64,000 nt of DNA from an uncultured bacterium (GTDB lineage: Bacteria; Omnitrophota; Omnitrophia; Omnitrophales; JACQLI01), in assembly GCA_964372875.1 (NCBI GenBank), contig CAYJTB010000001.1, positions 27,860 to 91,859 of the forward strand, given 5' to 3'. This document shows positions 9,658-32,494 of the stretch, one piece after another. Both the position numbers and the translations under genes were made by a program. How positions within the stretch are numbered: the first letter of the stretch is position 1; every line of letters begins with the position of its first letter. The notes under the pieces were generated by a model. It was not told the DNA's origin. It did no database searches and saw only the letters and a list, made by a program, of their open reading frames with translations.

Positions 9658-10662
9658 TTGAAATCACAAGCATCTACTGGTTATAATGCTCCCATGTTGC
9701 GTCGTCTTGTCCTTACCCTAGGTTTTCTTATTTTAGGCACCCTTCCTGCCTGGGCCCAGAAGCAGCTTGTCGATCGGGTGGCCGCTGTTATCAACGACGA
9801 AGCCATTACCCAAAGCGAGCTAGAGATGTATCTGCGTCCCATTTATGAAGGCCTGAAACAGCAATTTGAAGGCGAAGAATTAATGAACCGCTTGAATGAG
9901 ACCCGGCTTAAACTTCTAAATCAAATGATCGAAGACCGTCTTGTTTTTCAAAAAGCCAAGGCCATGGAACTCAAAGCGGAGGACAGTGAGATTGAAGAAG
10001 AAGTGGATAGGCTCAAAAAGCGCTACCCTTCTGAGGAGGCCTTGGAAAAAGAAATGACGAGTCAGGGTTACAGCATGTCAGGGCTTCGGGAAAATATACG
10101 CCGGCAAATCCTCATTCGTAAACTTCAAGACATCGAAGTAAAGTCCCGCGTTATCGTCTCACCCCGCGAGATTGAAGAATATTACAAGTCGCATATCGGT
10201 GAATTCGAACAAGAATTAAGAATGAAGCTGCTTTCCATCACCATTCGTAAAAGTAAAGAGGCCGAGGAAAAAGGACTTGTGGATGAAGCGGCGAAGAAAA
10301 AAATCGAATCCGTTGAATTCCGGATCCGGAGTGGCGAAGACTTTGAGGATTTGGCCCGTCAATTCTCTGAAGATGCCCATGCAGCCGAGGGCGGCCAAGT
10401 CGGCTGGGTCCGTAAAGGCGAATTTCTTCCCTCCATCGAAAAAGCCCTTCACGAATTAAACCAAGGAGCGATTTCCCCAGTGCTGGAAACCGCGGCGGGT
10501 TACCATCTTTTTAGGGTGGAGGAAAAAGATCCCGGGAAGGTGAGTTCGTTGGAGGAAGTACGGGAGAAAATTCGTTCGGTCCTATTCCGCGAAAAGGCTG
10601 AAAAGCGTTTCAAGGAGTGGATGGAAGAATTAAAGACCCAAGCCTACATCTCGGTCCGGTGA
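9658..10662 (+). CDS. SurA-like periplasmic chaperone / parvulin-type peptidyl-prolyl isomerase
   Basis: Signal peptide (MLRRLVLTLGFLILGTLPAWAQ, probable start at 9694), SurA N-domain-like helical region, PpiC domain GGQVGWVRKGEF...GYHLFRVEEK; upstream of pdxA as in the surA-pdxA-rsmA cluster. Confidence 0.8.
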   Translation: MKSQASTGYNAPMLRRLVLTLGFLILGTLPAWAQKQLVDRVAAVINDEAITQSELEMYLRPIYEGLKQQFEGEELMNRLNETRLKLLNQMIEDRLVFQKAKAMELKAEDSEIEEEVDRLKKRYPSEEALEKEMTSQGYSMSGLRENIRRQILIRKLQDIEVKSRVIVSPREIEEYYKSHIGEFEQELRMKLLSITIRKSKEAEEKGLVDEAAKKKIESVEFRIRSGEDFEDLARQFSEDAHAAEGGQVGWVRKGEFLPSIEKALHELNQGAISPVLETAAGYHLFRVEEKDPGKVSSLEEVREKIRSVLFREKAEKRFKEWMEELKTQAYISVR

Positions 10663-10671: not shown

Positions 10672-11721
10672 GTGTTGCAAAAACCCATCATTGCGATCAC
10701 ACAGGGCGATCCCGGCGGGGTCGGTCCCGAAATCATCGCAAAGTCCCTCCAGCATCCTGAAAATTTTTCCGGCGTTTTTCTTCTTCTGATCGGCACCGCC
10801 GTGGTTTTTGAATTTGTCCAAGAAGAATTTGGCATCAAACTCCCTTTAAATCCCATCCCGACCTTGGATCCCCAATTTTTAAGAGACGATTCGCTTAATT
10901 TTTTGGATGTGACGGAAGAAGCGGGATGGCTTTTAAAAAAACACTCCCTGCCCCAGCCCGATGAAAATAATCTTTTTGATATCGGCAAAGTGTCTGCGAC
11001 TAACGCAGCCATGGCCTTGGCGGCCTTGAAGGCCGGGGCGTACCAGGCAGCCACGGGTCTTGTCAATGGACTTGTCACAGCACCTGTGAATAAAGAAGCC
11101 ATTCGACTTCTCGAGCCCAAATTTGTGGGGCATACGGAATATCTGGCCAGAATCGCCCGCACCAAAGAATTCGCCATGATGTTTCTCAAAGCTAAGGACG
11201 AGAGTTCGGGACCTTTGCGGGTGACACTCGTGACCATTCATGTCCCTTTAAAAAAAGTTTCCCGGCTCGTCACTGAAGATGCCATTTTAGAAAAAATCCG
11301 TCTCACACATCAGTTCTTAAAAACCCGCCTTAAAATCGCCAAGCCCCGAATCGGTGTTTCGGCTTTAAATCCGCACGGTCATGAGACGGGGGACGAAGAG
11401 GAAAGAGTGATTTTTCCGGCCATCAAAAAGGCCCAAGAGGAAAATATCTTGGCAAAGGGTCCGGTTTCAGGCGACCGGATTTTTTACGATGCCTCCAAGG
11501 GAATTTATGATGCGGTTATCTCGATGTATCACGACCAGGCGCTGGCGCCCTTTAAATTGGCGGCCTTTGAAACAGGTGTGAATTTAACGCTGGGGCTTCC
11601 CTATGTGCGCACATCGCCTGACCACGGAACCGCCTTTGATATTGCCTACCAGGGAAATGCCAATCCCAAATCCATACAAGCGGCTCTCGCGTTGGCAATT
11701 CAGCTTGTGAAGGTTCGCTGA
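10672..11721 (+). CDS. pdxA: 4-hydroxythreonine-4-phosphate dehydrogenase PdxA
   Basis: ITQGDPGGVGPEI, HGHETGDEE, metal-binding His residues, SPDHGTAFDIA. Confidence 0.9.
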   Translation: MLQKPIIAITQGDPGGVGPEIIAKSLQHPENFSGVFLLLIGTAVVFEFVQEEFGIKLPLNPIPTLDPQFLRDDSLNFLDVTEEAGWLLKKHSLPQPDENNLFDIGKVSATNAAMALAALKAGAYQAATGLVNGLVTAPVNKEAIRLLEPKFVGHTEYLARIARTKEFAMMFLKAKDESSGPLRVTLVTIHVPLKKVSRLVTEDAILEKIRLTHQFLKTRLKIAKPRIGVSALNPHGHETGDEEERVIFPAIKKAQEENILAKGPVSGDRIFYDASKGIYDAVISMYHDQALAPFKLAAFETGVNLTLGLPYVRTSPDHGTAFDIAYQGNANPKSIQAALALAIQLVKVR

Positions 11722-11744
11722 TTTATTTAAATTAAAAGAACTCC

Positions 11745-11877
11745 GTCATCCTGAATGAAGCGACACGTCTTCGAGTGCGGCAAAGCCGCGAAGCCGTGAG
11801 GATCTGCCTTGAGATTCTTTCCGCCAAAGGCGGGCCCGCCTCTGGCGGGCGGCCATAGCCCTCGGCCTCAGAATGAC
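11745..11877. repeat. palindromic MITE-like element with imperfect terminal inverted repeats (GTCATCCTGA ... TCAGAATGAC), GC-rich internal hairpins
   Basis: Convergent intergenic region between pdxA(+) and GT2(-); TIRs related to the GTCATTGCGAGG family found in-frame in tsaD/larB/rsmA. Confidence 0.55.
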
Positions 11878-11884
11878 AGTTTGG

Positions 11885-13594
11885 TTAGTAAACCCGGGCG
11901 GCCCTTCTCTTTTTATTCTTTCCGCCTTTAGGCGCGACAAAAAATTCCATGTATTGGCCGAGGGCCAGGCGTGTCTGTGCATCGAGCGCAGGGACAGCAC
12001 CGAAGATGGTGGCAATGGCCGGGACAAGAAGCCATTGAAGAGCCAAGAAAATCTTTTCATAGAAGGGGACTTTCTTGGGGCGTTTGGGCAGGAGATAAAA
12101 ACTCAGGATAATCGAAATCACAAGGCTTGCGATAGCCATGTTGCAGATGACACCTGCCACCCGAGGCGCATTAAAGTGGGCGACGGTCAAATTGAATTCG
12201 TAATTGGGAACAAGGGCAGGCGCCCAGCTTAAGATCATCATGATGGGGGTCCAGGTGGCCCACGAGACATTCATCTCAAGAAGACGCAGCGCTCGTTTAA
12301 ATTTAAGCCAAAACGGGATCTCCTGATGCTTCAGCATGCCCCTCACGAGAATAGGAAAATTTTCGACCCCCCATGCCCAGCGTCTTTTTTGCCGGTAAAT
12401 GGATTGGCAGGTTTTCCACAAGTTCTCACCGATTGCCACATCCATCGACAACGTAACATAAAGAGGCTCCACCCGGTAATCGCCGTTAAAAATAAGAAAG
12501 GCCTTCCAGAAAATGGCAGAATCATCGGAAACCAGATCCACCGGCCAGTAACCTACTTCGACAAGCGCCTGAAAGCTCATGCTATGGCTTGAAAAGGTAA
12601 CCAAGTGGTCCGGGTCAGTGACTTCGATCAGCTGAAAATAAGAAGACCCTGTTTCTAACACTTGGGCAAAAGAGGGGGCCTCCCAGAGATTGTTATGATA
12701 AACGGGGATGGGCTGAAAACTGGTCCGGGTCCGTTTGGGATGAATCAAATAATTATAGGTGAGGCAAGAAAAATATTCGGTACTTACGACCGTATCCGAG
12801 TCAAAACAGGAAACCACAATGTGATCGAGCGGAGTCCCGCGCGCCTCGAAAAATTTCTTGGCCCAACGCGCGGCATACGTGGCGTTGGCGCCTTTGACCG
12901 CCGCCTCTCCTGGGAGCCCATCGGGATGAATACAGTTTTCAAAGTGGAGGAAATCTTTCGCGTATTCTTCTTTTAAGACCTCCGCAATACGGACCGCCTC
13001 TTTTCCTCCGCGTTCCTCAATCGCAAGGACCACCACGATGTGGTTTTTGGGATAATTCGTTTGTCTTAAAGCCTCAAGCGTGGGTTCTAAGACACTCAGA
13101 CCTTCCCAGAGATAGGGAATAATCACGAGATGATAGATATCTTTTGGATTGGGAAAATGGATTTTATCATGTTGGAGGCGTTTCAAAGTTGCGAGATGCC
13201 TTTTTTCTGAAAAATGAATTTTCCAACCAAGCTTGGGATCGCGAATCCTTTTTTGTGTCCTCGTTATGGCGCTCTCTAAATGGAGAAAATCTTGCAGCCG
13301 GTCAAACCATTGAGCGGTTCGTTCAATTTCAAGAAGCACATAAGAGAGCACCAAAAAAATGGTGAAATAAACCAGCCGGAAAAGCCAGTAGAGATCGAAA
13401 AGAATAACCGTCACAACCCCGGCGACCGGGGCCAAGATACATACGAGTGTAAAGGAAATAAGAAGACTCCAGCTAAGCACGGCGGGGAGGATTTCCAGGC
13501 CACGCTCCAACCGCCCTTCGTTTTTACCCAGATTGTGGCGGGAATATTCAAATTTCATGGAGAATCCTTGGAGGCCGCGGAGGCGGAAACCCAA
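11885..13594 (-). CDS. membrane-bound processive family-2 glycosyltransferase (cellulose/glucan synthase-like)
   Basis: N-terminal TM helices, D...DxD (CFDSDT)...SDD and Q(R/Q)xRW motif (YRQKRRWAWG), C-terminal TM bundle. Confidence 0.8.
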   Translation of the reverse strand: MGFRLRGLQGFSMKFEYSRHNLGKNEGRLERGLEILPAVLSWSLLISFTLVCILAPVAGVVTVILFDLYWLFRLVYFTIFLVLSYVLLEIERTAQWFDRLQDFLHLESAITRTQKRIRDPKLGWKIHFSEKRHLATLKRLQHDKIHFPNPKDIYHLVIIPYLWEGLSVLEPTLEALRQTNYPKNHIVVVLAIEERGGKEAVRIAEVLKEEYAKDFLHFENCIHPDGLPGEAAVKGANATYAARWAKKFFEARGTPLDHIVVSCFDSDTVVSTEYFSCLTYNYLIHPKRTRTSFQPIPVYHNNLWEAPSFAQVLETGSSYFQLIEVTDPDHLVTFSSHSMSFQALVEVGYWPVDLVSDDSAIFWKAFLIFNGDYRVEPLYVTLSMDVAIGENLWKTCQSIYRQKRRWAWGVENFPILVRGMLKHQEIPFWLKFKRALRLLEMNVSWATWTPIMMILSWAPALVPNYEFNLTVAHFNAPRVAGVICNMAIASLVISIILSFYLLPKRPKKVPFYEKIFLALQWLLVPAIATIFGAVPALDAQTRLALGQYMEFFVAPKGGKNKKRRAARVY

Positions 13595-15036
13595 TCATCT
13601 ACCAACCGGGGAAGAATATTTGCCGGCTCGAAAAGCTGGATCCGTGACAATCGGCGGGTAAGGGGATCCGCAAAATAAACAAACCCCCGTCTTTCATCCA
13701 AAGCAATTTGAGGGACTCTTTTTGAAATTTGGAAGAGAGGAACCGCTTGGCCATTGCCTTCAAAATCCAACACCTTTACCCAGCCGCCTTCTACAAATAA
13801 AAGATAATTGTCATTGTAAAACCAAGTGAGATTAGAAATTTTTTGCTCTCCCTGATAAATTTTTCGGGGGGAAACGCCGGTTTGGAAAAATTCTTTTTCC
13901 GGTTCACGCTCAAAATCGACCAGCCAAAGTTCAGAATCTTTCCGGTAGACAGCCCGCCTGTTGAAAACGGCCGTGACCACTTCCTCCACTCTCTTGTCCA
14001 GGTAATAGGGAAGCCGGTTGGAAAAAAGCTTGCCTTGATCCGACAAGAAAAGAGCAAACGCCTCATGAAGCGGAGTGAAGATAAAAGGCCGGGAGAGAAA
14101 ATAGAAGGAATAGCGTTCCCCCTCGTCAGGACCGAAAATAAGGTGCGCCTTGGCGGCCGTGCCCAATAACGTTTTCCGGATTTCCCCTTTTTCAGTTAAT
14201 TCGAATAAACGTCTTCGGGCATCCATCACAAAAAGTTTGCGTCTGTCCGTGGTATAGCCCCGAATCCCGCCCTGCACATCAAAGAGAGGAAACCGTTCTT
14301 CAAAATCCATTTTTTTGAGGGTATCGCCTTGAAGATAAAAGAGTGCATTTTTTTGAGAGGGGCCCCAACGAAACTTATCGAAGGGTTCCTGGAGACTTCC
14401 AGCAAGCGGAGTCAGTTCCATGGGACTCAGGAATTTCACAAGAAAAGGACGAATGCCTTCTTTTTGTTTCATGAAGGCCACGGCCTTTTCGCCTAAGGGA
14501 TGCATCAGGACTTCTCCCACTGGGAAATCATATTCGCCTGAAAAATTGGGGAAAATAGGCTCGAGTTGATTTCGCTCAGGTTCAAAAAGATAGAGCCCGG
14601 AGACGTGATCGCCTTGAAGGACTACAAGTTTTCTTGTCTGTGCAGCGTGCCAGATTTTTGTGATGGGAAAATCCGTGAGCTTCTCCGAATCAAACTGAGT
14701 GGGGAAGAGCAAAATATTTTCAAAAGAAAGGACCTTATCGGCTTTGACCTCCACTTGTTTTTGCCAAGGATGCATTCCCGGCAGGCTCAAGTGAAGGTTA
14801 TAAAAACCGGATTTAAGATTACGAATGACGACAGGGGTGGTGTCTTTCAAGACCCGGTGATTGAGCTCAACCTGGGCTTGGGAGGGGTGTGAATTAAGGC
14901 TGATCAGGCCGGTGAGGAGAAGCTTGGAATGGCTGGGGCTGAAAATATAGCCCAAGGCATAGAGCACGGTCAAAGGTGCTATCACAAGGTAGGCTACGGT
15001 AAAAACCAAGAAGATTGCTTTACGTAAAATTCCCAT
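13555..15036 (-). CDS. hypothetical N-terminally membrane-anchored protein, upstream partner of the GT2 synthase (40-nt overlap)
   Basis: 493 aa; single N-terminal TM (FLVFTVAYLVIAPLTVLYALGYIF) then large extracytoplasmic domain; operon with GT2; no recognisable family by eye. Confidence 0.5.
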   Translation of the reverse strand: MGILRKAIFLVFTVAYLVIAPLTVLYALGYIFSPSHSKLLLTGLISLNSHPSQAQVELNHRVLKDTTPVVIRNLKSGFYNLHLSLPGMHPWQKQVEVKADKVLSFENILLFPTQFDSEKLTDFPITKIWHAAQTRKLVVLQGDHVSGLYLFEPERNQLEPIFPNFSGEYDFPVGEVLMHPLGEKAVAFMKQKEGIRPFLVKFLSPMELTPLAGSLQEPFDKFRWGPSQKNALFYLQGDTLKKMDFEERFPLFDVQGGIRGYTTDRRKLFVMDARRRLFELTEKGEIRKTLLGTAAKAHLIFGPDEGERYSFYFLSRPFIFTPLHEAFALFLSDQGKLFSNRLPYYLDKRVEEVVTAVFNRRAVYRKDSELWLVDFEREPEKEFFQTGVSPRKIYQGEQKISNLTWFYNDNYLLFVEGGWVKVLDFEGNGQAVPLFQISKRVPQIALDERRGFVYFADPLTRRLSRIQLFEPANILPRLVDDWVSASAASKDSP

Positions 15037-15087
15037 GTTGTTCTAACTCCCTATTGGGCCTCATTTTATGCTACTTGGGGGTCATTT

Positions 15088-15116
15088 GACAAGTTACGTT
15101 CCAGAGGGTATCTTTT
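15088..15116 (+). promoter_or_regulatory. sigma70-like promoter (TTGACA-17-TATCTT) in divergent region upstream of giant gene
   Basis: ttgacaagttacgttccagagggtatctt. Confidence 0.4.
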
Positions 15117-15211
15117 GTTACAGTGAAAGAAACTCTTAAGTGAATGTTCCTAAGGGGTTAGCACCTCGACTCTATTGATTTTTTTGGGGTATGCTCGGTG
15201 CTATGGTGAGC

Positions 15212-15240
15212 GAGATTGAAATTGGCGGTGCCAATTTCAA
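15212..15240. promoter_or_regulatory. perfect 12-bp-stem palindrome (gattgaaattgg cggtg ccaatttcaatc) in the leader of the giant gene
   Basis: Seen directly; 76 nt upstream of the ATG at 15316; possible operator or RNA hairpin. Confidence 0.5.
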
Positions 15241-15315
15241 TCGTGTCGAACCATTAGCAACAACTCCAGGGAATTTTTTTACTCTGTAATTCAGACCTTT
15301 AGGAAAGATTAAACT

Positions 15316-18300
15316 ATGACCCTACGCGCGAAAAATTTTTATCTACGCACTGTCGCAGCTTTCACCGCAATCATTTTTTGCTGGAATAGCCTTGCTTGGC
15401 CGCTTCCCGAGGTTGCGGTTCCCCAGGCCGGCAAAACTTTCGATCTCATTCCAAAAGAACTCGGAACCGTCGATGAATACGAACTGCCGGACGCTTCACA
15501 TTCCGCACCCTTTGTCATACATATTCAAGATCTCCACGCAGCACCCGAAGCTCAAGAAAAAATCCTGGACATTCTTAAATTTTTACATTCAAAAAAGAAA
15601 CTTCTCGTAGCGGTCGAAGGAGCCGCCGGAACGCTTCATCCTGAGTATTTAGATTTCTTTCCGCAATACCCGCGTGTCACAAACGCACTCGTTCAAGATT
15701 TGGTAAGTGAGAGCATGCTTACAGGGCCGGCGTTATTCGCATGGGAGAGGTATGAGAGTAAGCCGTCATTGCACCCGTCATTGCGAGGACGTAAGTCCGA
15801 AGCAATCTCAAATCCTAGATTGCTTCGTCGGGCCTTTGGCCCTCCTCACAATGACAATAGCGTCCAATTCATAGGCGTCGAGACGCCGCGTCTTTATCGC
15901 GAAAACCTTAAAGCCTATCGCGATTTTTTCCAGGATGAAGAAAAAAATCAGCAGGATTTGAAATCTTTCCAAACCTCATTGGAATCGGCCCAAACGAAGA
16001 TTTTCAATCCTGATTTGAGGAAATTTGTCCAAGAAGTCCAGAGACGTAAAGATGGAAAGTTTCAATCGGGAAAGGCCTCGCCCGATCTTGCGGCTTACAT
16101 TCGCTTTCTCGCGGATTCAAGCCGAGATCATTTGGGAGTTGATCTAAGAGATAAATTCGAACAGATCCGTTTTCCCAATCTAACCCGCATTCTTTTCTTG
16201 ATGGAATTCGAATCAAAAATCACTGCTCACCAGCGCCGGGTTCTGCATTCTGAAATTGAATCCAAAAAACTTTTTGATGAAATCACACTTCTCGAAACAA
16301 GACTGCGGCAAATACTGGTTAAAAAGCCGGAAGAAACAAAACTTCTTGAGATCCTTGATGATTTCAAGTTGCTTGAGAAGTTATTCCATTTGGAACTGAC
16401 TCGCGAGGAATATTACCAAGTCGTCAACAGGGTTTTGGAAATCAATCCGTCGAATTTACATCAGCGTTTGGCAACCATTGCTGAGATTGCTTCGACCTCG
16501 TCTGAAATGTTGTCTCGCAATGACGCCGATTACGAAACTGCTCTGCGTTTTTACCGCTTAGCCATTCGCAGAGACAAAGCCCTTCTTGAAAATGCCTTGC
16601 GAGAGGCAGCTAAAACGGAGAACTCGTCTCAAGAAAAACCACTCATCGTTCTTGTTACCGGCGGTTTTCACACTTCAGGGGTGAGCGAGCTTCTCAAAGA
16701 AAAGAAAATTCCTTACGCCGTCGTCACGCCTGCCTTAGCAAAAACCAAAGCCAATCAAGACCAATATCACAAACTGATGTCCGGCAAAATGTTCGCCAAA
16801 GAAGCCTCAAGCGCTTCGCCCAAGAATAACAATCTGGTGTGGGCGCAGATTCTTACAGCAAGAGATCGGTACCCGAGCCTCAATTCCGACGAGGATCAGC
16901 AAAAAATATTTTCCCACGCGACTGAAAAGTCCGGCGAGTATTTTCGAAAATTCTATCCCCAAATCTCCGAACCCAAACTGCAAGAACTTTTATCTCGCCC
17001 CGCCGGATTCTTTTCGCAAATCTCCCGTTCCGAATTGCAAAGTAGGAGCCAGATTACGAATTCGGCCATCGATGGCCGAATTGGCGGGAAAAGGGTACTG
17101 CCTTCACGTTTTCCGCGCTCGGAAGTGCGGGCGGTAGAACAGCGATTAGAAGTCAGTGGTCAGAAGACAGAAGGCTGGAGTTCAAAGATAGGAAAAATTA
17201 TCAGGAATGGCAGCGATTTTGGACTATCGAGGGTTTTCCAGCGTAGTCAGGCGAAGAATTATCGAATTCCAAGCCGCTTAGAAAAATCTCGAGGTGAAAG
17301 AATAGAAATCTCTTTAAAGGTTTTCATCGATAGCAGATCGTGGTCTCCTGTGACAATGATCGTTGCTTTAGCTGAAAGAGCGCATTCCAGCACGGCATCA
17401 TCGTCCGGGTCACGGCAGGCCTTTACCTTTGTTTTAGGTTTGACTATCAAAGCTTTCATATGGATCAATGAAATCATTTCTTCAAGCATTTCAGGCGTGA
17501 TCCATTTCTTGAGTTTAGGTTTTTCCAGTGAGCGAAGAAAGTCTTCCAGTAAGGCCGGAGATAAAGCCGCAATGAACTTGTCTTCTTCCAGGGATTCCAG
17601 AATCGAACGGCAAACGCCCGGAAAGGCGAGTCCGCTCACCAGCACATTCACATCAAGAACGACCCGACGCATACCGTTCCTGCCGGGCTTGCTTGACCAG
17701 ATTCAGAAGCTCTTTTCGGCTGAGAGGGTGTTTCTTTCGGCTTTTATCAACTTTGCGGGTCAGAGAACGGAAGCGTTCTCCCCAGGTCTTATGTTCAAGA
17801 CGACGGATCAGGGTAATGCGGTCACGGGATTTCAATTGATTGATCATGCGCTCAATTTGTTGAATGTCTACTTCCACGGCAATCTTAGGCATAGGATTTT
17901 ATCCTCCTCTTCGAATCAGTATAATTTATCGGCCTTGGCGGATCAAAATCAAAACATTTCTTCCGTTAAGCCTTCTAAGCAAAGTTCGACAGAACCGAGC
18001 CGAAGGGCCGCTTCCGGCCCCGAGAGCCGTCAGTCTCCGATCCTAAGCGTCGATAGACCCGGAGGGGCCCGTGGGGAGGTGCGGGCAAAAGAACAGAGGT
18101 CAGAAGTCAGAGAGCAGAGGATAGAGGTCATAAGTCAGAGATCAGAAGGAAAAATTACTTCGAGTGGCGGCGATTTTGGTAGCGTTCGATCAGGTACATC
18201 ACGCCCCAGGCAAGAAATATCAAAACCAAAACAAGAGACACGGTTATCACGTTTTATTTACCCCTTTTCCGAATCTCTTGGGCAAGCCATCCAAGAAATA

Positions 18301-27300: not shown

Positions 27301-28719
27301 ATAAAAAATCATTTTCTGACCGCGCTTCATCATTTCATTTGGGAACACAGCGACTTTGAAGATGCGAAGAATTTAGCCAGAGAACTCGGTAACTTGAGCC
27401 TAATCAGTTCTTTGTTGGGTGAGCCCCTCAGTAAAAGACAGGCCGCTTTTTATAAGCGCGCACTTTTGAGCTCTGACCGCACGCAGCAGAAGATCGCGCT
27501 TGGCTTCTTCGAGACTTTCCCTGATCTTGAAAAAATGGACTGGAAAGAGGAAGTCGTTGGTAAACTTAAAGAAATCGTAATGGATGAATCCGAAGATTCT
27601 GAATTTAGAAAATATGCCTTTGAAGCGTTGACAAACAATATTCTTCTTATAGAGCCAGCCTTTTTGGCGCCTTATTTTAAAGAGCCGCGCAGCCAACGGT
27701 TTCGAATCATTTCTTCGGATAAAAAAGGCGCTCGGATTTTATTTTCGGTTCTTCAGAAGAAATTTGGGTCGCCTTTAAAGGACCCGCCCCTTTTTAAAAA
27801 AAGTTCCGAGTCCATCATTTTATCAGGAGAATTTACGACAGGTCTGAGAAATGCTGCCATGTTGATCCGATTTGTAAGGCAGGCCTACGGCCGGGAGATA
27901 TCCTTTGATGAGTCCCGCGGCTTGCTTAAAGAGATGAAAAAGAAACAAGACAGATCCCGGCGTTCCGAAATACGGAGTGAAAGCTTGGATTCGACGTGGG
28001 AGTTGAGGGAGGATGCGAACAAAGGAAAGCTTGCGGAACTTGGAAAACAATTTGCGCCGATGATTGAGAGTCTTTGGAAACGCTCCGAGGTCAGGCACAG
28101 GCTTGCGACGGACGGATTTTTGAATCTTTCAAAGCTGATTGAAATTCCCAAAGCCGAAGCGGCTGAACCTGCGATTGTAGCTGCGCTTTTGATCCGTGCA
28201 GAACAATCCCAAACCGGAACGCCGGCTTTGGACAAACATTTGCAAGTGTGGCAGTCGCGCATGGGAATCAGTTCGGTTGCTAAAGAAAATGAAGTCGTAA
28301 TCCTCTTAGAAGGTGCGGCGTTTAAACTCGGACTCTTGGCTGCGATCGACGGAATTAGCCCGGCAGCTCCGAAGATCGGCGTTGTGGCGCCCAAGGCTTA
28401 CCATTCTTTAGTGGAAGAAGTCAGAAGCGGTCTTAGAACCGGGCAAGAACTGATCGAAGGGGAGAAGCTTCCCGAAATTTTAAATCAAATTGCTCAGATG
28501 AAACAGAAGCCAAGCCGCTTAACGATTTGGGCTTCGAAGGAAGACTCGTTCTTAACAGCAGCGTTCATCAAACGTTTTCTTAAAGATCCAAACCTGAATG
28601 TAGAAGTAAAGACCGTGACGCAGCGCGATCTTGACCGCGCCAACGCGTCTCACCCCGGCTTTGCGGAACGTATCAAGAACTTCCTCGCCGCCGTCAAATC
28701 CCTCAGCATTTCCGCTTAA
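15316..28719 (+). CDS. giant secreted multi-domain protein (4467 aa): signal peptide, helical N-region, 7-blade WD40-like beta-propeller, three ~70-aa WN..HP repeats, Pol-beta-like nucleotidyltransferase-like motif, HEAT/ARM-like helical C-terminus; contains recurrent RSEVR motifs and in-frame GC-rich hairpin repeats
   Basis: Single uninterrupted 13.4-kb ORF; N-terminus MTLRAKNFYLRTVAAFTAIIFCWNSLAWP; WD40-like blades ~18.55-19.5 kb; GSLGVLGSAVRDKSDLNLMVV at ~25.49 kb; RBS aggaaag upstream. Confidence 0.8.
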   Translation: MTLRAKNFYLRTVAAFTAIIFCWNSLAWPLPEVAVPQAGKTFDLIPKELGTVDEYELPDASHSAPFVIHIQDLHAAPEAQEKILDILKFLHSKKKLLVAVEGAAGTLHPEYLDFFPQYPRVTNALVQDLVSESMLTGPALFAWERYESKPSLHPSLRGRKSEAISNPRLLRRAFGPPHNDNSVQFIGVETPRLYRENLKAYRDFFQDEEKNQQDLKSFQTSLESAQTKIFNPDLRKFVQEVQRRKDGKFQSGKASPDLAAYIRFLADSSRDHLGVDLRDKFEQIRFPNLTRILFLMEFESKITAHQRRVLHSEIESKKLFDEITLLETRLRQILVKKPEETKLLEILDDFKLLEKLFHLELTREEYYQVVNRVLEINPSNLHQRLATIAEIASTSSEMLSRNDADYETALRFYRLAIRRDKALLENALREAAKTENSSQEKPLIVLVTGGFHTSGVSELLKEKKIPYAVVTPALAKTKANQDQYHKLMSGKMFAKEASSASPKNNNLVWAQILTARDRYPSLNSDEDQQKIFSHATEKSGEYFRKFYPQISEPKLQELLSRPAGFFSQISRSELQSRSQITNSAIDGRIGGKRVLPSRFPRSEVRAVEQRLEVSGQKTEGWSSKIGKIIRNGSDFGLSRVFQRSQAKNYRIPSRLEKSRGERIEISLKVFIDSRSWSPVTMIVALAERAHSSTASSSGSRQAFTFVLGLTIKAFIWINEIISSSISGVIHFLSLGFSSERRKSSSKAGDKAAMNLSSSRDSRIERQTPGKASPLTSTFTSRTTRRIPFLPGLLDQIQKLFSAERVFLSAFINFAGQRTEAFSPGLMFKTTDQGNAVTGFQLIDHALNLLNVYFHGNLRHRILSSSSNQYNLSALADQNQNISSVKPSKQSSTEPSRRAASGPESRQSPILSVDRPGGARGEVRAKEQRSEVREQRIEVISQRSEGKITSSGGDFGSVRSGTSRPRQEISKPKQETRLSRFIYPFSESLGQAIQEIRIMMATIIERTALAFNEVFQMFSLTTRAANTRLTALMIPSANKFRLLDGKRVFISMLQAPQPNTGLILSQILFLEYEISRRSEVREYISDWTVSTLETKQPVLAAAFSTDGKILAAGARNNVHLTNGDLRKWSVEFRAHRNEIAKLISFQRGNRNFFATASRIGSISLWNSNGGLIRRLEQLNPEDFQPVLGLSVSKNGDWLAATDMDVMKIYDLTGMSSPKTIPITDQSRNHFVQFSPDGTSIASTYYGEIRIEDIKTGKLRANLHHEASLKKSMDTSALAFSKGDDVAAASTDGKIRIWRWKGERQPQVLDFLSPAREASHLIFSPNGKRLAASTADQIEIWKLNGKVWRHEETIYPHLDAVTEILFSPDAKRFMAAGIWHGSGRVRIWSKETPARAEVRTDGIPTTWFRIFNRLDNLNREVWKQKDLDIIDLTNQLEKKLISLFGSQLLYGIWTWNTSVREVRFGLRSGPLSFELTANPHQEIPEREIKRGYTVTMNAMLTSAAESQHAKKWGDSEPEERGETLLEIPIAEIDRSQPVIYFGSFYFDTDKEKKETIIKQEILFLPGEERNYQIYIWHNNALEKTTLEKEGGRTYAVWRTPEAEPSLSFQYVALHDAQGKDLGEISRLILKAGNSETYRNNLQFLYGPIWRDETSSFSHGSRTSVKPSVFEDLISAAPGKRIAALLGLAIEYQYVPEGQVFSRMLLTELEKLEGLPYGRIAALREIAEMSPEEAHERFKDPYDQPSAIPAVMTLVASLAPRLLERMKNWDQEFYEELKGVLQKPDLKTLFEEGEVKFYEADHLWAASDNRSFFPGVVAFSRSKDRQIIVPIYFGNEPKDEDGKVWFKILDATSLGIENSNAATYQVYDHMLGEFYKTLHSGEKLYREGWSIGIPVVPGKLDRAGFIQKGRHVQFLEMRRTQSLTTATRIGLPENLVKTQGILTDLLREMSKLEIYFFISKTGATDRRMVPVDNVYEFFSSYAGKKGEHWNEIVSEPLQLTVSSPGFKRQTLRHALRMMQEALQLTYSFPGTLKGNDPHLSFYHDKLIEETQLLKTSDQTGKWAHVEFEIASSHFEMPDHWDQPAENSLRQRIQALREALEIPFVLMLKAPSGAKDPYHIEPVGNLHQRLPYFVLKDDFLKNPHDPRFPYFSKGAQLSFGLEAPMDSARLEQVRNILVASLEGRMSAATLKRAIEVTMHQWQREDSFFSESRSEARRVPRTLAVHPVRLAPGTPLYPDRSGPGVAVQSHWNSARSEVRTEKSERLTRSNAGELLKPRRYLKNKIYGIGRITAVEGKFGGKDPQGSVEVAFLNKHGFEETKEFSTWSLFQLPEQNPEEAFFSVTRQEIEDFKNQKRQGQAAYKEEIDKKRIAQREGRQWMEAQSPTFSLYDSPFSARAGRPLAADYRKLMQGIQDRAQGEYHLGSASIVERKILFEMLGTRLIPKTNQSETTLRINLGRRKKEFAEKLKTILDETGGLSARAVSEAEEKIMSPKDKSRALSSEWLKFRDPVTGKFATEKDIKRWIQNAIPIVERILEYEVKLLKLEKQIQIHPRPLARSEVRAAESSPTKKVAFFNLRTADDSSIVLPQRMSYLPVEQRLPDYSAWRIRVGRESGNLHAFLRDVLGPRWHWNVKGETKAYFLYKSLPKKFKQFIGKRKPPTGFDMEALGLLVVNRSDIFYIPMEETVNESVVTVLDKNDRDAINEFISHHAMIQTVPQNIRIFPPVRYESVKFGLGEDPVSSPKPGSIEVVYHPRLMVNDLGKADKEIIFETSFDLTQLRPRKKITAELEGRFYQELKSRLRNTWQIRIGNRTVEMPRAKDLPAKVQDVEEILLPGNNRKTASLHFNDAVSFYLDGILMRSNVPVPKDIHAWIFWKTRIRFNDQEISVETTEGNNVLTYRTDETGEHLRVNGEPTDNSVLQNMIRQMGSAFSILAFQMARDPEQTDYLRESGKETIDDEFDQWLGRSEVREEGQPAQNGNGHAIQKKQRGRGFRTKEEALQALAERQAKGLSSDPKSLQRHLAEGGNPTLLTFIYRWNQKHPEEPIEMKLLPTRTHKYESKGEIIEALEKRRLEKGESANYRMQLRLHIEEGGDRTLYQAVLRWNHDHPEDLINLPLDPHVAHGQLGKYQTKQDGLNTLSERKKQGLGNSTSDLRQTKSDGGDWPLLVFIRHWNKKHPKDRIALENADQNFNRLSPVAVWHSQTQDFKTTDQKRTEWWRALQEEADHEAGKRLVESFIPSVNEIAQRLSGGRDSHYEADLIQNGNMIVLETIYPERKEDQWNPSRGVSMTEFVETRLKKEMRHRTLQEIRSSGRFSIDEPYRFSKGREKEWQVPSYDAQPQEVRINNLADERDKQSGLPVILFEEKHQIAREIGKWLIKKGFLKQVKQEGIQNLAVSMIGSLGVLGSAVRDKSDLNLMVVTDANESQAEALAEKLAQWIGGRYHEPQDSEPIRISVGKEGDYEQAIADGNGFISLLQKHKVGTDPIKGIASVEVIGIPDEDNSFSEDSLTRQKTRAAFHLAFQDPRLAEQAINGILVLENAKGAAERLAQKLPSDQENLFGYYEKFLAKQAANLRKLQESSIDSKARAEVHPNPTDSGTPQSSPDQARAEVRSSLPEQRAEKKLETRKLEIGAGISGLSGRVETSNGRVFSGSDRLPIKSTRSPQKSEWQGQPSFSLPPLRSLPQKSSPNKSISRVLLERQAAISGRVLGKALLPELLLIGPKSHAETTLPASPSGPLSGIYFSQNKIYSNINSELSDFSRSDGSTSSPSVLSKAEGRVERAEVHPNPTDSGTPPHSRPTGVSTEVSLAAPPGAPPSSPERARAEVRASVEEIIRKQMLSGDLKAFEKNFESYDREKAFELLNSISKIAKEISERIRKGEEELMVAANNGQKMQEIIDAAKILENFPNDKQIHGVHLSAIINLQEIFNLTPKALPRYRNLLEAIVKHASKKEQPHQAAAEIIESFEGEQHADSQQDQFQRNEALEFLTLDLDEKVFKETVIKNHFLTALHHFIWEHSDFEDAKNLARELGNLSLISSLLGEPLSKRQAAFYKRALLSSDRTQQKIALGFFETFPDLEKMDWKEEVVGKLKEIVMDESEDSEFRKYAFEALTNNILLIEPAFLAPYFKEPRSQRFRIISSDKKGARILFSVLQKKFGSPLKDPPLFKKSSESIILSGEFTTGLRNAAMLIRFVRQAYGREISFDESRGLLKEMKKKQDRSRRSEIRSESLDSTWELREDANKGKLAELGKQFAPMIESLWKRSEVRHRLATDGFLNLSKLIEIPKAEAAEPAIVAALLIRAEQSQTGTPALDKHLQVWQSRMGISSVAKENEVVILLEGAAFKLGLLAAIDGISPAAPKIGVVAPKAYHSLVEEVRSGLRTGQELIEGEKLPEILNQIAQMKQKPSRLTIWASKEDSFLTAAFIKRFLKDPNLNVEVKTVTQRDLDRANASHPGFAERIKNFLAAVKSLSISA
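17259..17672 (-). CDS. PIN-domain toxin (TIGR00305-like), encoded antisense inside the giant ORF
   Basis: MRRVVLDVNVLVSGL...CRDPDDDAVLECALSAKATIIVTGDHDLL: conserved acidic residues of the PIN fold. Confidence 0.75.
   Translation of the reverse strand: MRRVVLDVNVLVSGLAFPGVCRSILESLEEDKFIAALSPALLEDFLRSLEKPKLKKWITPEMLEEMISLIHMKALIVKPKTKVKACRDPDDDAVLECALSAKATIIVTGDHDLLSMKTFKEISILSPRDFSKRLGIR
17653..17892 (-). CDS. putative antitoxin partner of the nested PIN toxin
   Basis: 79-aa basic/helical protein overlapping the PIN start by 20 nt (classic TA arrangement); no recognisable fold by eye. Confidence 0.5.
   Translation of the reverse strand: MPKIAVEVDIQQIERMINQLKSRDRITLIRRLEHKTWGERFRSLTRKVDKSRKKHPLSRKELLNLVKQARQERYASGRS
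18258..18461 (-). CDS. small (67 aa) 2-TM membrane protein, antisense inside giant ORF; paralog of 26324..26533
   Basis: MKTLFPSKRRNLF...VSLVLAALVV...SLKAKAVLSIIVAIMILISW; AT-rich promoter-like region immediately upstream on the minus strand (TTGACT at 18505-18510). Confidence 0.5.
   Translation of the reverse strand: MKTLFPSKRRNLFADGIMRAVSLVLAALVVSENIWKTSLKAKAVLSIIVAIMILISWMACPRDSEKG
21972..22113 (+). repeat. in-frame GC-rich hairpin cluster inside giant ORF (paralogous to 26062-26130 and 26630-26790)
   Basis: gtgcacccg-loop-cgggtactcc flanks shared with the 26-kb copies; stems cccggtgc/gcaccggg, acccggacc/ggtccgggt, cattggaac...gttccaatg; ends in RSEVR codons. Confidence 0.5.
26062..26130 (+). 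repeat. in-frame structured repeat unit (40-nt perfect repeat + second hairpin) inside giant ORF
   Basis: gccgaggtgcacccgaatccgaccgattcgggtactcctc identical at 26062-26101 and 26644-26683; hairpin cccgaatc/gattcggg; second hairpin cctcgcc-cgatca-ggcgagg. Confidence 0.6.
26324..26533 (-). CDS. small (69 aa) 2-TM membrane protein, antisense inside giant ORF; paralog of 18258..18461
   Basis: GTG start; MKSIFLTTARRDWL...VILVLLAGVLGG...SLKWRLVVLGGLVICFYLGLIF; shares MK(S/T)(I/L)F, K.SLK...VL...V.I pattern with the other copy; AT-rich region with TTGATA upstream on minus strand. Confidence 0.5.
   Translation of the reverse strand: MKSIFLTTARRDWLAKLFQHVILVLLAGVLGGELFLKLSLKWRLVVLGGLVICFYLGLIFAASSSKEED
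26630..26790 (+). repeat. in-frame structured repeat unit, second copy, with four hairpins
   Basis: Same 40-nt repeat; additional stems actcacgcc/ggcgtgagt, cctggcggc/gccgccagg, cctcgcc-tgaacg-ggcgagg (loop differs from copy 1 while stem is kept). Confidence 0.6.
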
Positions 28720-28737
28720 TCTTGTTTCAAACCACGT

Positions 28738-28766
28738 TTGACAAACATGCCAAATTGTATTACACT
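28738..28766 (+). promoter_or_regulatory. sigma70-like promoter TTGACA-17-TACACT upstream of vapBC
   Basis: ttgacaaacatgccaaattgtattacact, followed by RBS GGAGG before ATG 28808. Confidence 0.45.
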
Positions 28767-28807
28767 TTACCGATCGATAAGTTAATCGTATGACAACGGA
28801 GGCTTGA

Positions 28808-29017
28808 ATGACACGAGTGACAGTTTCCCCAAAATATCAAATCGTGATCCCTAAAGAAATTAGGGAAAAGTTGGATATTCGGTGCGGACAGAAGATGGCC
28901 GTCGTAACAAGAGGGGAATGGATTATGCTGGTTCCCGATCTGCCTTTGAAACATTATCGGGGGTTTTTGAAAGGTGTGAGTTCAGAGGGGGTTCGTGACC
29001 GAAGGGACCGGTTTTGA
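28808..29017 (+). CDS. vapB: AbrB/MazE-fold antitoxin (VapB-like)
   Basis: 69 aa, MTRVTVSPKYQIVIPKEIREKLDIRCGQKMAVV swapped-hairpin motif; 4-nt overlap with downstream PIN gene. Confidence 0.75.
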   Translation: MTRVTVSPKYQIVIPKEIREKLDIRCGQKMAVVTRGEWIMLVPDLPLKHYRGFLKGVSSEGVRDRRDRF

Positions 29018-29391
29018 CGGTCATCGATTCAAGCGGTTGGATTGAGTTTTTTAGCGAAGGTCCACTTGCCTCCCATTATGAAAAGCATTTGGGGTCTTTG
29101 TCTGAGATTGTCGTTCCTACCATTGTGCTTTATGAAGTCTACAAGAAATATAAGAGAGAAAGCGGAGAGCAAGGCGCTTTGACCGCGGTGTTTCATATGC
29201 AAAAGTGCCGGATCGTACCTTTAACAGAAGAATTGAGTTTGGAGGCGGCGGATTTAAGCCTTCAATACGGACTTGCCATGGCCGATGCGATTGTTTATGC
29301 GTCGGCACTTCAGGAAAAAGCAAAGTTAATCACCAGCGATAAAGCCTTAAAAAATCTGCCTCAAGTGGTTTACTACAGTAAATCGTCCTAA
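29014..29391 (+). CDS. vapC: PIN-domain ribonuclease toxin VapC
   Basis: 125 aa, VIDSSGWIEFF...conserved Asp/Glu, ADAIVYASA, LITSD. Confidence 0.75.
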   Translation: MTVIDSSGWIEFFSEGPLASHYEKHLGSLSEIVVPTIVLYEVYKKYKRESGEQGALTAVFHMQKCRIVPLTEELSLEAADLSLQYGLAMADAIVYASALQEKAKLITSDKALKNLPQVVYYSKSS

Positions 29392-29397
29392 GATTCC

Positions 29398-30312
29398 TTG
29401 AGTTCCACGCAAATCGCCCTTCTTAAAAAATACGGTCTTGAAGTCCGTGGATTTCGCGGCCAGCATCTTTTGGTCGATCCCAACATTCAACGAAAGATCG
29501 TGGAGTTAGTCGCTCCCAAACCAGGTGAGTGGATCGTTGAGATCGGGCCGGGCCTGGGTGCGCTCACGACTGAGATTTTGGCGGACGGCGCGTCGGTCCT
29601 TGCGATTGAAAAAGACAAACGCTTCTGCGAGATCCTGGAAGGGGAGTTCGGCATCGATTACAAAGGAAAACTCCTGATCGAAAATGCGGATGTTCTCAAG
29701 ACGGATTTAAAAAAATTACTCAAATCGTCGTTACGAGCCCCAAAGAGGCGAAGCAACCTAAGCACGAAGACTGCTTCGGCGCCGCCTCGCAATGACCGGA
29801 TCAAAGTCATCTCGAACCTTCCTTACTATATAACTTCACCTGTGCTTTTCTGGCTGATCTCCAATCGTGCATCTGTGGAAAAAGCGGTTTTGATGATGCA
29901 GGCTGAAGTCGCGGACCGTTTGCTCGCCCAGCCGGGAGATAAAGATTATAGCCGGCTTACCTTGGGAGTCCGGTATTACGCCGAAGTCCACCGTGCTTTT
30001 GAAGTTTCCCGCAATTGTTTTACTCCGAGGCCCGATGTCGATTCAACGGTCGTGACGATCGATTTTCACCCGCCGTCCGCATTCCCAAAAGGAATCGACG
30101 AGGCATTTCTTTTCCATCTCATTCAAGTAGCCTTCGGTGCCCGGCGAAAAACCCTACTCAATCGTCTTACGCAAGATTCAAAAGTAGGTCGCCCTCGTTC
30201 CCAGCTCTTAGAAATTTTTCACAAGCTCGGCATCCCCGAAATGGCCCGCGCTGAAGAGCTCCTCCTCAAAGACTTCATCTCATTGACCGAATTTCTTCAA
30301 CCTAAACATTAA
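29398..30312 (+). CDS. rsmA: 16S rRNA (adenine1518/1519-N6)-dimethyltransferase RsmA/KsgA, carrying an in-frame palindromic-element insertion
   Basis: TTG start; GQHLLVDPNI, VVEIGPGLGALT, NLPY motif; ~23-aa extra loop (...RRSNLSTKTASAPPRND) coincides with element 29727-29796. Confidence 0.88.
   Translation: MSSTQIALLKKYGLEVRGFRGQHLLVDPNIQRKIVELVAPKPGEWIVEIGPGLGALTTEILADGASVLAIEKDKRFCEILEGEFGIDYKGKLLIENADVLKTDLKKLLKSSLRAPKRRSNLSTKTASAPPRNDRIKVISNLPYYITSPVLFWLISNRASVEKAVLMMQAEVADRLLAQPGDKDYSRLTLGVRYYAEVHRAFEVSRNCFTPRPDVDSTVVTIDFHPPSAFPKGIDEAFLFHLIQVAFGARRKTLLNRLTQDSKVGRPRSQLLEIFHKLGIPEMARAEELLLKDFISLTEFLQPKH
29727..29796. repeat. palindromic element (degenerate 5-prime TIR gtcgttacgag ... cctcgcaatgac) inside rsmA
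   Basis: 3-prime end identical to the tsaD and larB copies (CCTCGCAATGAC); internal gaagcaa motif shared. Confidence 0.55.
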
Positions 30313-30331: not shown

Positions 30332-30420
30332 CACGAGTCTCGTCGTCACTCGTAACGCCCCTGCGAGACAGTCCCCTTCTATATTGTTTCTTTTCAAGGA
30401 TCGGGGCAAGTCCCCGTGGG
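30332..30420 (+). repeat. intergenic repeat B1 (~90 nt), inverted copy at 32753-32845
   Basis: cacgagtctcgtcgtcactcgtaacgcccctgcgagacagtccccttctatattgtttcttttcaaggatcggggcaagtccccgtggg; ~90% identical to the reverse complement of 32753-32845. Confidence 0.7.
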
Positions 30421-30547
30421 ACGTCCTCGTTCGTGCGTCCGGCCTCGTTCTCCGCCAAAACGCGTGGCGGATCCCTGCCCACTCGGCCTTCCGAACGCGC
30501 CTCGACTGGTCCTTCCGCTGATCGTAACCTAGCAGAATCCCCAAGCC

Positions 30548-30609
30548 TGAGACGGTCCCCTTCATTAATTTTTATTTTCAAGGATCGGGACAGCCCCCTT
30601 GTGGGGCGG
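30548..30609 (+). repeat. intergenic repeat B2 (shorter copy of the B family)
   Basis: gagacggtccccttcattaatttttattttcaaggatcgggacagcccccttgtggggcgg. Confidence 0.65.
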
Positions 30610-30630
30610 CGTAGCGGCCGTTACGGAAAA

Positions 30631-30657
30631 ATCCGGAAAAGATTTTTCCGTAGGCCC
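30631..30657. repeat. conserved hairpin CGGAAAAATC-loop-GATTTTTCCG (second copy at 32712-32738)
   Basis: 10-bp perfect stem in both copies with different loops. Confidence 0.6.
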
Positions 30658-30772
30658 ACGAGTGAGGGCGACTCCTTGTCCGTTTCTATCTTGTCGCCTG
30701 AACGTTCGGCGAAGGCTGTGGGGATTCTCCCTGCGTTGACAATAAGAATTGCGGCATGCTACGATCCTTGGC

Positions 30773-32475: not shown

Positions 32476-32494
32476 TGCCAAAGAGCAGAATCTC

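Follow-up and report, generated by a model that had tools for sequence, protein, structure and literature searches.

A clade-conserved Omnitrophota locus with a modular, motif-punctuated giant gene that carries antisense cassettes in frame

In the genome of an uncultured bacterium of the phylum Omnitrophota, the genes surA and pdxA are followed by 17.7 kb of other DNA before rsmA is reached, and the locus raises the question of what this interval is: a mobile island dropped into a housekeeping cluster, or a settled feature of the lineage with a function of its own. We analyzed the interval within a stretch of 64,000 nucleotides (nt) of contig CAYJTB010000001.1, hereafter the window, in which, according to the map of open reading frames (ORFs) and Pfam searches, pdxA ends at position 11721 and rsmA starts at 29398. 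Between these genes lie a 133-nt miniature inverted-repeat transposable element (MITE), a minus-strand operon for a family-2 glycosyltransferase (GT2) and a PEGA-domain protein, an ORF of 13.4 kb, and a vapBC pair. This separation had been described in an earlier account of the same DNA made without database searches (the sequence-only reading), and its coordinates and content stand as described there; the anatomy of the giant gene, which that account missed, is the unusual part of the region. The core of the locus is the two-gene glycan-synthase operon (PEGA and GT2) and the divergent giant gene, which is read from a conserved promoter. The results presented below favor, with a probability that we put at roughly 0.6, a reading in which a clade-conserved locus comprises a modular, motif-punctuated giant gene that holds antisense cassettes with its frame preserved and whose product works in a polyprotein-like manner.

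Relatives of the locus were sought by scanning one genome per species (GTDB species representatives) with pdxA, the nearest being Omnitrophota; four additional contigs, L016 (NCBI GCA_974446295.1), L017, L018 and L019, were reached via relatives of the giant protein. All four share the same arrangement, with pdxA followed by GT2 and PEGA on the minus strand, the giant gene on the plus strand, and then rsmA-gatC-gatA. By this comparison, the interval is a lineage-specific locus that is kept in an Omnitrophota clade at an otherwise conserved pdxA-rsmA junction. The core of the locus and the modules predicted in the giant protein are as follows.

11885-13594, minus strand, gene for a membrane-embedded processive GT2 (PF13632)
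13555-15036, minus strand, gene for a PEGA-domain protein, the first gene of the operon (PF08308)
15037-15315, divergent promoter region of 279 nt
15316-28719, plus strand, giant ORF of 13.4 kb, 4,467 codons without a stop, encoding 4,467 amino acids (aa)
15316-16995, plus strand, N-terminal hydrophobic helix and conserved N-domain (aa 1 to about 560)
18574-19440, plus strand, WD40 beta-propeller module, aa 1087-1375 (multiple WD40/beta-propeller Pfam matches)
24214-26040, plus strand, module with three Arm DNA-binding-like repeats, a sigma-70 region 2-like stretch and a nucleotidyltransferase-like stretch
27964-28716, plus strand, conserved C-terminal module (C-module) ending in ...SISA, 33-41% identical in L016-L019

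Scored for codon usage, with 25 other genes of the window as the training set, the sense frame of the giant ORF is positive over about 85% of its length; the score falls in two stretches, at 17.1-18.4 kb and 26.1-26.6 kb, where antisense frames outscore the sense frame. An alternative genetic code was considered as the cause of the open frame and rejected, given that table 11 itself yields an ORF without stops. The giant proteins of the five syntenic genomes (the window and the four relatives) are 1,939, 2,567, 3,033, 4,467 and 6,964 aa long, and sequence identity is found only in the N-domain (39-49%) and in the last ~250 aa, the interior being otherwise unrelated. Between genomes with housekeeping genes that are 70-80% identical, the interior of the giant gene has been almost wholly replaced, and the five genomes, with a fixed locus and a replaced interior, constitute a natural experiment on modular gene rebuilding.

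The predicted architecture of the giant protein, common to the members of the very large family described below, is an N-domain that follows a hydrophobic helix, then variable, unrelated modules parted by the motif R-[SA]-E-[VL]-R, and an end in -[AS]A. The WD40 propeller is the only Pfam-significant module in the window protein, most of the modules lacking a Pfam family, and NCBIfam yields no match for the N-domain, the C-module or most of the other modules. The Arm-like repeats match PF14657 (E 3e-4) and the sigma-70-like stretch shows weak NCBIfam matches to sigma factors (E ~1e-3); the nucleotidyltransferase-like stretch was recognized by inspection of the sequence only. In relatives, the domains found are kinase, LOG (PF03641), PP2C, dehydrogenase, HEAT and transaldolase. 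The last ~145 aa of the C-module are modeled as a Rossmann-like alpha/beta fold (predicted local distance difference test, pLDDT, 72-88), with no specific fold match. The C-module is conserved within the syntenic clade only; across the wider family, just the tail is held in common, 91 long family members ending in -AA, -SA or -QA. In most of the long members (P0006-P0150; positions 28705-28716 in the window), the end -[ST]x[AS]A, -AA or -QA comes after an amphipathic helix, and this tail recalls ssrA-type C-terminal degrons and the signals of tail-specific proteases.

The N-domain is what unites these proteins. An exhaustive search with a profile constructed from the first 600 residues of the giant protein and five homologues detected 9,291 representative proteins (clusters), 5,724 of them at E <= 1e-30; by a word-indexed search, the N-domain had only 5 relatives, a large underestimate. 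In nearly all of these proteins the domain lies at the extreme N-terminus, and among the 150 matches listed it starts, with few exceptions, at residues 2-45; the family proteins are 1,000-7,200 aa long. In NCBI, two members appear under the names of single domains, as proteins of Candidatus Omnitrophota. By these profile matches, a single family of giant proteins, with more than 9,000 clusters, is united by an N-terminal domain of ~500 aa. The AlphaFold2 model of the N-domain (pLDDT 78.6, predicted template modeling score 0.74) includes a helix at aa 8-27; the residues H74, E101, E189, R291, Y413 and R419 are invariant and GGFH452 is near-invariant. In L012 (4673-15893), from a more distant organism, the N-domain is encoded as a stand-alone protein of 406 aa, and a second N-domain, in a protein of 1,256 aa, is followed by a 9,654-aa protein without the motif. 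The contig L011 (1-13102) encodes tandem family members of 4,552 and 1,033 aa, separated by an unknown ORF and a helix-turn-helix gene that resemble a toxin-antitoxin pair.

The modules of the window protein are punctuated by short motifs. The pattern R-[SAG]-E-[VI]-R occurs in 12 in-frame copies in the giant ORF, compared with 0.75 expected in the whole six-frame window, and in no other long ORF of the window.

17116-17130, and starting at 18070, 18097, 18541, 19492, 22063, 22972, 24196, 26122, 26767, 27961 and 28081, plus strand, copies of the motif
starting at 26059 and 26641, plus strand, RAEVH variants

The broader pattern R-[SAP]-E-[VLAMI]-R has 15 matches in the window giant, compared with 0.4 in shuffled sequences, and the family motif is present in 795 copies, where 29.8 are expected, in 151 members (27-fold), with a median spacing of 260 aa and flanks that are rich in Ser, Pro, Ala and Glu. 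The motif comes in lineage-specific flavors, RSELR in P0016, RAEVR in P0010, RPEVR in P0018 and [KR]SE[ST]R in the L011 giant. The matches between different giants, except for those of the WD40 repeats, are all located in the intervals between motifs, several of them beginning or ending at motifs, and the WD40 propeller itself is flanked by motifs at aa 1077 and 1394. The motif that precedes the C-module is invariant in the five orthologues while its surroundings diverge, and is located in a low-confidence, probably disordered stretch of the model. The last copy in the window (28081-28095, KRSEVRH) aligns to the non-motif sequences KFPEVQR, KIPVIQR and NEPAIRN in the four orthologues, so that it apparently arose within a conserved module in this genome alone. 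Most of the copies share the DNA core CGC-NCC-GAG-GTG-CGG, well above the background of codon usage; some use an unrelated set of codons, such as AGA AGT GAA TTG AGA, which argues for selection on the peptide as well. A function of the motif DNA as an internal Shine-Dalgarno sequence with a start codon was rejected: there is no enrichment of Met, Val or Leu codons after the GAGGTG core, and the variants RSELR, RSEAR and RSETR lack that core. Our search of the literature for the motif, or for polyproteins in connection with Omnitrophota, found nothing relevant.

Three cassettes with antisense ORFs are embedded in the giant gene, and its 13.4-kb frame is open through all three, each of which lies between copies of the motif.

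17121-18179, cassette 1, minus-strand toxin-antitoxin operon with direct repeats of ~105 nt at both ends
17259-17672, minus strand, gene for a PIN_3 toxin (PF13470, E 8e-18, above the curated cut-off)
17653-17892, minus strand, gene for a putative antitoxin of 79 aa, with a GGAGGA ribosome-binding site and a 20-nt overlap with the start of the toxin gene
18148-18540, cassette 2, mini-cassette between two copies of the motif
18258-18461, minus strand, gene for a small membrane protein of 67 aa
26044-26790, cassette 3, with two-hairpin linkers duplicated at its ends (26056-26135 and 26638-26780) that contain exact repeats of 40 nt
26324-26533 and 26237-26323, minus strand, putative small hydrophobic ORFs of cassette 3, with an AAGGAGG ribosome-binding site before 26237-26323

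The repeats that bound cassette 1 (17121-17222 and 18075-18179) are 72.6% identical in a self-BLAST comparison and each encodes the motif; in the cassette, the sense codon score is about 0 and that of an antisense frame is higher. The 79-aa ORF has no Pfam family, so that its role as an antitoxin is inferred; with a PIN toxin, an overlapping upstream partner and expression signals, 17259-17892 on the minus strand is predicted to be a type II toxin-antitoxin pair. Under synonymous reshuffling, the giant frame stays open in 11% of cases for the PIN_3 gene and in 9% for the 79-aa ORF (P ~ 0.114 x 0.092), and none of 25 ordinary genes of the window contains an open antisense stretch of 211 codons. 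Cassette 2 has counterparts elsewhere. Its sense frame is 54% identical at the aa level to residues 2427-2551 of P0018, inside an otherwise unrelated giant, and its DNA is 79% identical to the contig L015, with a perfect 41-nt match 5' of the 67-aa ORF. The protein product of this ORF is 67% identical to that of an antisense ORF in L015 (7540-7740) and 35% identical to that of one in L011 (7831-8013), each inside a giant gene, and in all three sequences the ORF lies between two copies of the motif. The antisense-frame identity (67%) is higher than the sense-frame identity (54%). Given the 41-nt identity to L015 although the N-domains are only about 26-33% identical, these comparisons point to a cassette that moves between giant genes. 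A search of Rfam with the whole window finds one tRNA only, so that the conserved stretch of 126 aa in cassette 2, which has no Rfam family, does not correspond to a known RNA; a word-indexed search with cassette 2 found no matches, missing P0018 as well, and says nothing on its spread. In cassette 3, the sense codon score is negative and the antisense ORFs, which are possible genes, have no family match. The nested antisense genes posited in the sequence-only reading thus hold at two loci at least, the PIN_3 gene and the 67-aa gene, and other antisense ORFs of the window, none with a Pfam match, are unsupported. The nested genes are relevant to the coexistence of overlapping genes with selfish elements; our search of the literature found no description of intact genes nested antisense in an open frame of 13 kb.

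A mechanism that would connect these observations can be proposed. The giant protein would be polyprotein-like, with the disordered, motif-bearing linkers as processing sites; the linkers would be cut, possibly, by the hydrolase-like N-domain, and the nonsense peptides that cassettes encode between two motifs would be cut out and lost. At the DNA level, the hairpin-forming linkers with the CGC-NCC-GAG-GTG-CGG core would be the sites where modules and cassettes are inserted, duplicated and exchanged in frame. We propose the cleavage at motif-bearing linkers tentatively, as a step for which the odds are somewhat unfavorable. In the broadest form of this proposal, Omnitrophota would encode thousands of giant polyproteins headed by a Tiki-like domain and cleaved at R-S-E-V-R-type motifs into separate module proteins, with the linkers serving as landing pads for frame-preserving selfish cassettes, among them antisense toxin-antitoxin pairs and genes for small membrane proteins, that are mobile between distant genomes and for in-frame swaps of modules; we consider it unlikely that this form will hold in full.

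Several points weigh against the polyprotein-like reading and its mechanism. Cleavage at the motifs is hypothetical. Fewer than 3 matches to the motif are found in about a fifth of the long proteins of the family. The hydrolase assignment comes from two weak, independent signals: two of 25 members match PF04187 (E 0.006), and the fold match of highest probability is to EreC (Foldseek probability 0.25, E 0.2). Both are below significance; the N-domain is possibly a Tiki/ChaN/erythromycin-esterase-like hydrolase, which is a lead rather than an assignment. The N-domain follows a hydrophobic helix and, if that helix is a signal anchor, may be extracytoplasmic, while many of the modules look cytoplasmic. 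The PIN_3 cassette is unique to this genome, and Pfam gives no match for ten long antisense ORFs of the giants of L015 and L016, suggesting that long antisense ORFs are mostly noise and that PIN_3 is the exception, not the rule. All the relatives are metagenomic assemblies. Finally, the block is present in L016-L019 and missing in L001, which is equally close to the window, so that a single gain and a single loss in L001 are both possible.

The linkers themselves supply another argument of this kind: with their nucleotide bias and hairpins, they may be repeated DNA of which the motif is chiefly a by-product. Taken to its conclusion, this argument becomes the best surviving alternative, namely, that the motif has no protein function and is the in-frame footprint of a spreading hairpin repeat, a MITE-like linker or one akin to repetitive extragenic palindromes, or else a target-site duplication, the giant being an uncleaved multidomain protein. 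The nucleotide consensus of the motif is stronger than the amino acids require, and S, A, P and T, the residues that NCC codons specify, are what is found at position 2. A double motif, RSEVH...GTP.SS...RAEVR, makes up many of the linkers; these fold as two hairpins and covary, with 9 compensatory base pairs among 7 copies; the motif-coding DNA is duplicated on both sides of inserts, as with AGGGCCGAGGTGC on both sides of an insert of ~50 nt, and in-frame MITEs are common in this genome. A footprint of this kind does not readily explain the copies in unrelated codons, including AGY serine and AGR arginine, the one motif that five genomes keep unchanged at an orthologous position amid divergent surroundings, the lineage-specific amino-acid variants that are consistent within a protein, or the restriction of the motif to the giant among the ORFs of the window. 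On balance, we regard this alternative as doubtful, and retain the polyprotein-like reading.

The MITEs form a group of their own in the window. By their terminal repeats (consensus GTCAT[TC]..GA / TC..[AG]ATGAC), five copies are recognized.

11745-11877, MITE-like palindromic element of 133 nt between the convergent ends of pdxA and GT2, with terminal inverted repeats GTCATCCTGA / TCAGAATGAC
15777-15855, palindromic MITE in frame in the N-domain of the giant gene, with terminal repeats GTCATTGCGAGG / CCTCACAATGAC
29727-29796, MITE in frame in rsmA, not found in the L003 and L009 orthologues
34946-35038, MITE copy
36144-36299, MITE copy

The DNA fold of the leftmost element is more stable than those of shuffled sequences (z = -2.9). 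No second copy of it was found by BLAST, its relatives being recognized via the terminal repeats. The element is absent from L016-L019, where pdxA and GT2 abut or overlap and leave no space for it. Its candidacy as the boundary of an island was rejected, given that related elements are scattered through the window, at least 3 of them outside the block. The peptide translated from 15777-15855 (aa ~148-183) is missing in all homologues, the copies in tsaD (31 extra codons) and in an AIRC-family gene (52 extra codons) are likewise in frame, and the MITE-encoded extra peptides (for example, VIARS...PPRND) are not in the orthologues. These in-frame palindromic repeats have terminal inverted repeats, occur in copies, keep the frame and are missing in orthologues, and they resemble the Rickettsia palindromic elements (RPEs), which were reportedly described by Ogata and colleagues in 2000 as in-frame palindromic repeats in protein-coding genes. 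In both cases, palindromes sit in frame in coding genes, including housekeeping ones, and leave the ORF intact, the genes concerned here being rsmA, tsaD, the AIRC-family gene and the giant N-domain. The elements described here belong to another phylum and another sequence family, and differ also in that larger cassettes with whole antisense genes are tolerated in frame; to our knowledge, such cassettes have not been described for RPEs.

The sequence-only reading had taken the block for a mobile or accessory island with edges of mobile or accessory DNA, and the synteny data speak partly in its favor. In L001, the closest reference genome in the scan of species representatives (pdxA 70% identical), the gene order is surA-pdxA-rsmA-gatA-gatB, with a gap of 15 nt between pdxA and rsmA, and in L003 and L009, in which pdxA is about 42% identical, rsmA comes directly 3' of pdxA. 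Given that pdxA and rsmA are adjacent in these three Omnitrophota, the 17.7 kb interrupt an ancestral adjacency, as that reading had held. The left MITE and vapBC are missing from L016-L019, and toxin-antitoxin modules often move with mobile DNA. A recent acquisition, in which an island edged by the MITE and a vapBC addiction module was dropped into the pdxA-rsmA junction, is nevertheless very unlikely, given that the core of the block sits at the same site in four relatives and is at least as diverged as its surroundings. Compared with L016-L019, mfd, pdxA, rsmA, gatA and gatB of the window are 65-82% identical and surA 52-56%, and in the block, GT2 is 66-69% and PEGA 46-47% identical, so that the divergence of the core is comparable to or above that of the flanking genes. 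Neither the GC content (47.3% in the block, 48.1% in the flanks) nor the tetranucleotides (correlation to the flanks 0.924 for block windows, 0.910 for flank windows) show the compositional break that the sequence-only reading had suggested looking for, and the dinucleotide distance of the block is inside the range of the flanks. The genes named above take up the whole of the block. There is no Pfam match to an integrase or transposase in the annotated ORFs or in the modules of the giant, a scan that did not include every small ORF; no tRNA lies near the block, the sole tRNA of the 64-kb window being at 42909; self-BLAST detects no repeat linking 11.7 kb and 29.4 kb; and MITEs of the same type are found outside the block, at 29727, 34946 and 36144. 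The synteny comparison therefore supports that reading as regards the broken adjacency and contradicts it as regards the core, which L016-L019 share, and its view of the edges is borne out in that the MITE at 11745 and vapBC are genome-specific additions. What that reading had itself named as counting against it, relatives with the block in conserved synteny and no break in composition, is largely what is observed. Compared with L016-L019, the features specific to the window are vapBC, the left-edge MITE, an insertion of ~85 nt in the leader of the giant gene and the nested cassettes. Only the edges (MITE on the left, vapBC on the right) are recent, and the core appears to be an old, vertically kept feature of the clade; broken synteny together with an edge MITE and a toxin-antitoxin module did not, in this case, equal a recent mobile island.

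That the giant ORF is not one translated unit at all, being a decayed or fused string of genes or a misassembly of repeats with a frame that is open by accident, is extremely improbable: two stretches are non-coding by the sense codon score, an assembler might be misled by the exact repeats of 40 nt (26062 and 26644) and the sole confirmation of the sequence is a 3.6-kb Logan contig, maybe from the same sample, but an accident would have to account for 4,467 stop-free codons with a positive score over most of their length, for the same N-to-C layout in thousands of homologues behind a conserved promoter, and for open antisense stretches of a length not seen in ordinary genes of the window.

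With the giant gene taken as a single translated unit, its closest known counterparts are the giant proteins of the same phylum. Omnitrophota giant proteins have been described as class 1 of "multi-enzyme metabolic cluster" proteins (Nielsen & Lui 2026, bioRxiv 10.64898/2026.06.07.730766), and the cleavage points of giant proteins have been stated to be unknown, which blocks their analysis module by module (West-Roberts et al. 2023, bioRxiv 10.1101/2023.11.21.568195). The protein described here shares with the published giants the phylum, a very long ORF, apparently tiled by unrelated enzyme and regulator domains, an N-terminal hydrophobic segment and a sequence that is largely unique to each genome; post-translational cleavage has been speculated for them. 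It differs in length, its 4,467 aa (1,939-6,964 aa in the orthologues) being below the published cut-offs of at least 10,000 aa (Nielsen & Lui, bioRxiv 10.64898/2026.06.07.730766) and 30,000 aa (West-Roberts, bioRxiv 10.1101/2023.11.21.568195), and in its neighborhood, with an adjoining GT2/PEGA operon and no flanking secretion or pilus genes. Both preprints are silent on a shared N-domain, on a punctuation motif, on candidate cleavage points and on antisense genes. The giant gene is a variant of the known Omnitrophota giants, and what is new is the family-wide N-domain, the motif and the intact antisense genes in an open ORF. These giants have been catalogued only recently; the motif is a candidate for the missing cleavage points and offers a cutting rule for the prediction of the structures of giant proteins.

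Two more distant analogies can be drawn. Like the polyproteins of picornaviruses and flaviviruses, the giant gene is a single ORF for independently folding modules with a short motif at their borders, with lineage-specific variants of the motif and a candidate hydrolase in the same protein; unlike these, it is cellular and chromosomal, its cleavage is a proposal, its candidate protease is weakly assigned, and its modules are interchangeable and differ between close relatives. With integrons and other cassette arrays, it shares variable cassettes between short hairpin repeat sites and a content that differs among close relatives, and differs from them in the lack of an integrase, in the single continuous translated frame and in repeats without the attC pattern.

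In the GT2 of the operon that adjoins the giant gene, the motifs DSD265, DD357 and QKRRW402 and four hydrophobic segments, with helices at both ends, were identified, and the protein shows a weak NCBIfam match to PgaC/IcaA; with the D, D, D, Q(R/Q)xRW motifs and the transmembrane helices, it is predicted to be a processive GT2 polysaccharide (glycan) synthase. The PEGA protein contains an N-terminal hydrophobic anchor, according to its hydropathy, and its gene overlaps that of the GT2 by 40 nt. The constant pairing of the GT2/PEGA operon with the giant gene in five genomes suggests that the two are functionally linked. A promoter scan locates the promoter of the giant gene at TTGACA (15086), with TATCTT after a spacer of 17 nt, and these -35 and -10 boxes, along with the stretch just 5' of the annotated start, are largely conserved in the five genomes. 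The leader of the giant gene contains, at 15165-15250, the insertion of ~85 nt mentioned above, which is not present in the four syntenic relatives and which includes a perfect inverted repeat of 13 bp with a 3-nt loop (15214-15242); this palindrome may act as an operator or as a leader hairpin, or may be a further small insertion.

At the right edge of the block, a second toxin-antitoxin pair is found, which is transcribed in the direction of the giant gene.

28738-29391, plus strand, vapBC-type toxin-antitoxin module with its own promoter
28808-29017, plus strand, gene for a MazE/AbrB-type antitoxin (PF04014, E 3e-8)
29014-29391, plus strand, gene for a PIN toxin (PF01850, E 8e-21) that overlaps the antitoxin gene by 4 nt

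The promoter-like sequence TTGACA-17-TACACT is located at 28738-28766. With a PIN toxin gene that comes after an overlapping gene for a DNA-binding antitoxin, 28808-29391 is predicted to be a type II VapBC module. It is present in none of the four syntenic relatives, in which the stop codon of the giant gene is separated from rsmA by 15-20 nt (329 nt in L017). The module has the usual arrangement of PIN-type type II modules, with a small antitoxin gene that overlaps the downstream PIN toxin gene and a promoter of its own, and the second pair, with PIN_3, resembles it; that pair (17259-17892, minus strand) differs in that all of it lies within another gene, antisense to it, and the host frame is kept. 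A toxin-antitoxin pair nested in this way is not known to have been described, and none was found in our search of the literature.

The flanking genes are those of a housekeeping region.

7747-9654, short homologue of mfd
9658-10662, surA, upstream of pdxA
10672-11721, plus strand, pdxA, left flank of the block (PF04166, E 2e-88)
29398-30312, plus strand, rsmA (ksgA), right flank of the block (PF00398, E 4e-50)

The pdxA gene is 69-76% identical to those of L001 and L016-L019, and rsmA is followed by gatC, gatA, gatB and tsaD. Inverted copies of a repeat of ~90-145 nt, 87-93% identical to one another, are located at 30332-30692 in the rsmA-gatC spacer and at 32494-32845 in the gatA-gatB spacer, so that they bracket gatC-gatA; in the relatives, both spacers are much shorter, about 15-330 nt. 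The mfd homologue, at 635 aa, is about half the usual length, and is of the same length in L003, L009, L016, L018 and L019; the short mfd appears to be a trait common to these Omnitrophota and the window.

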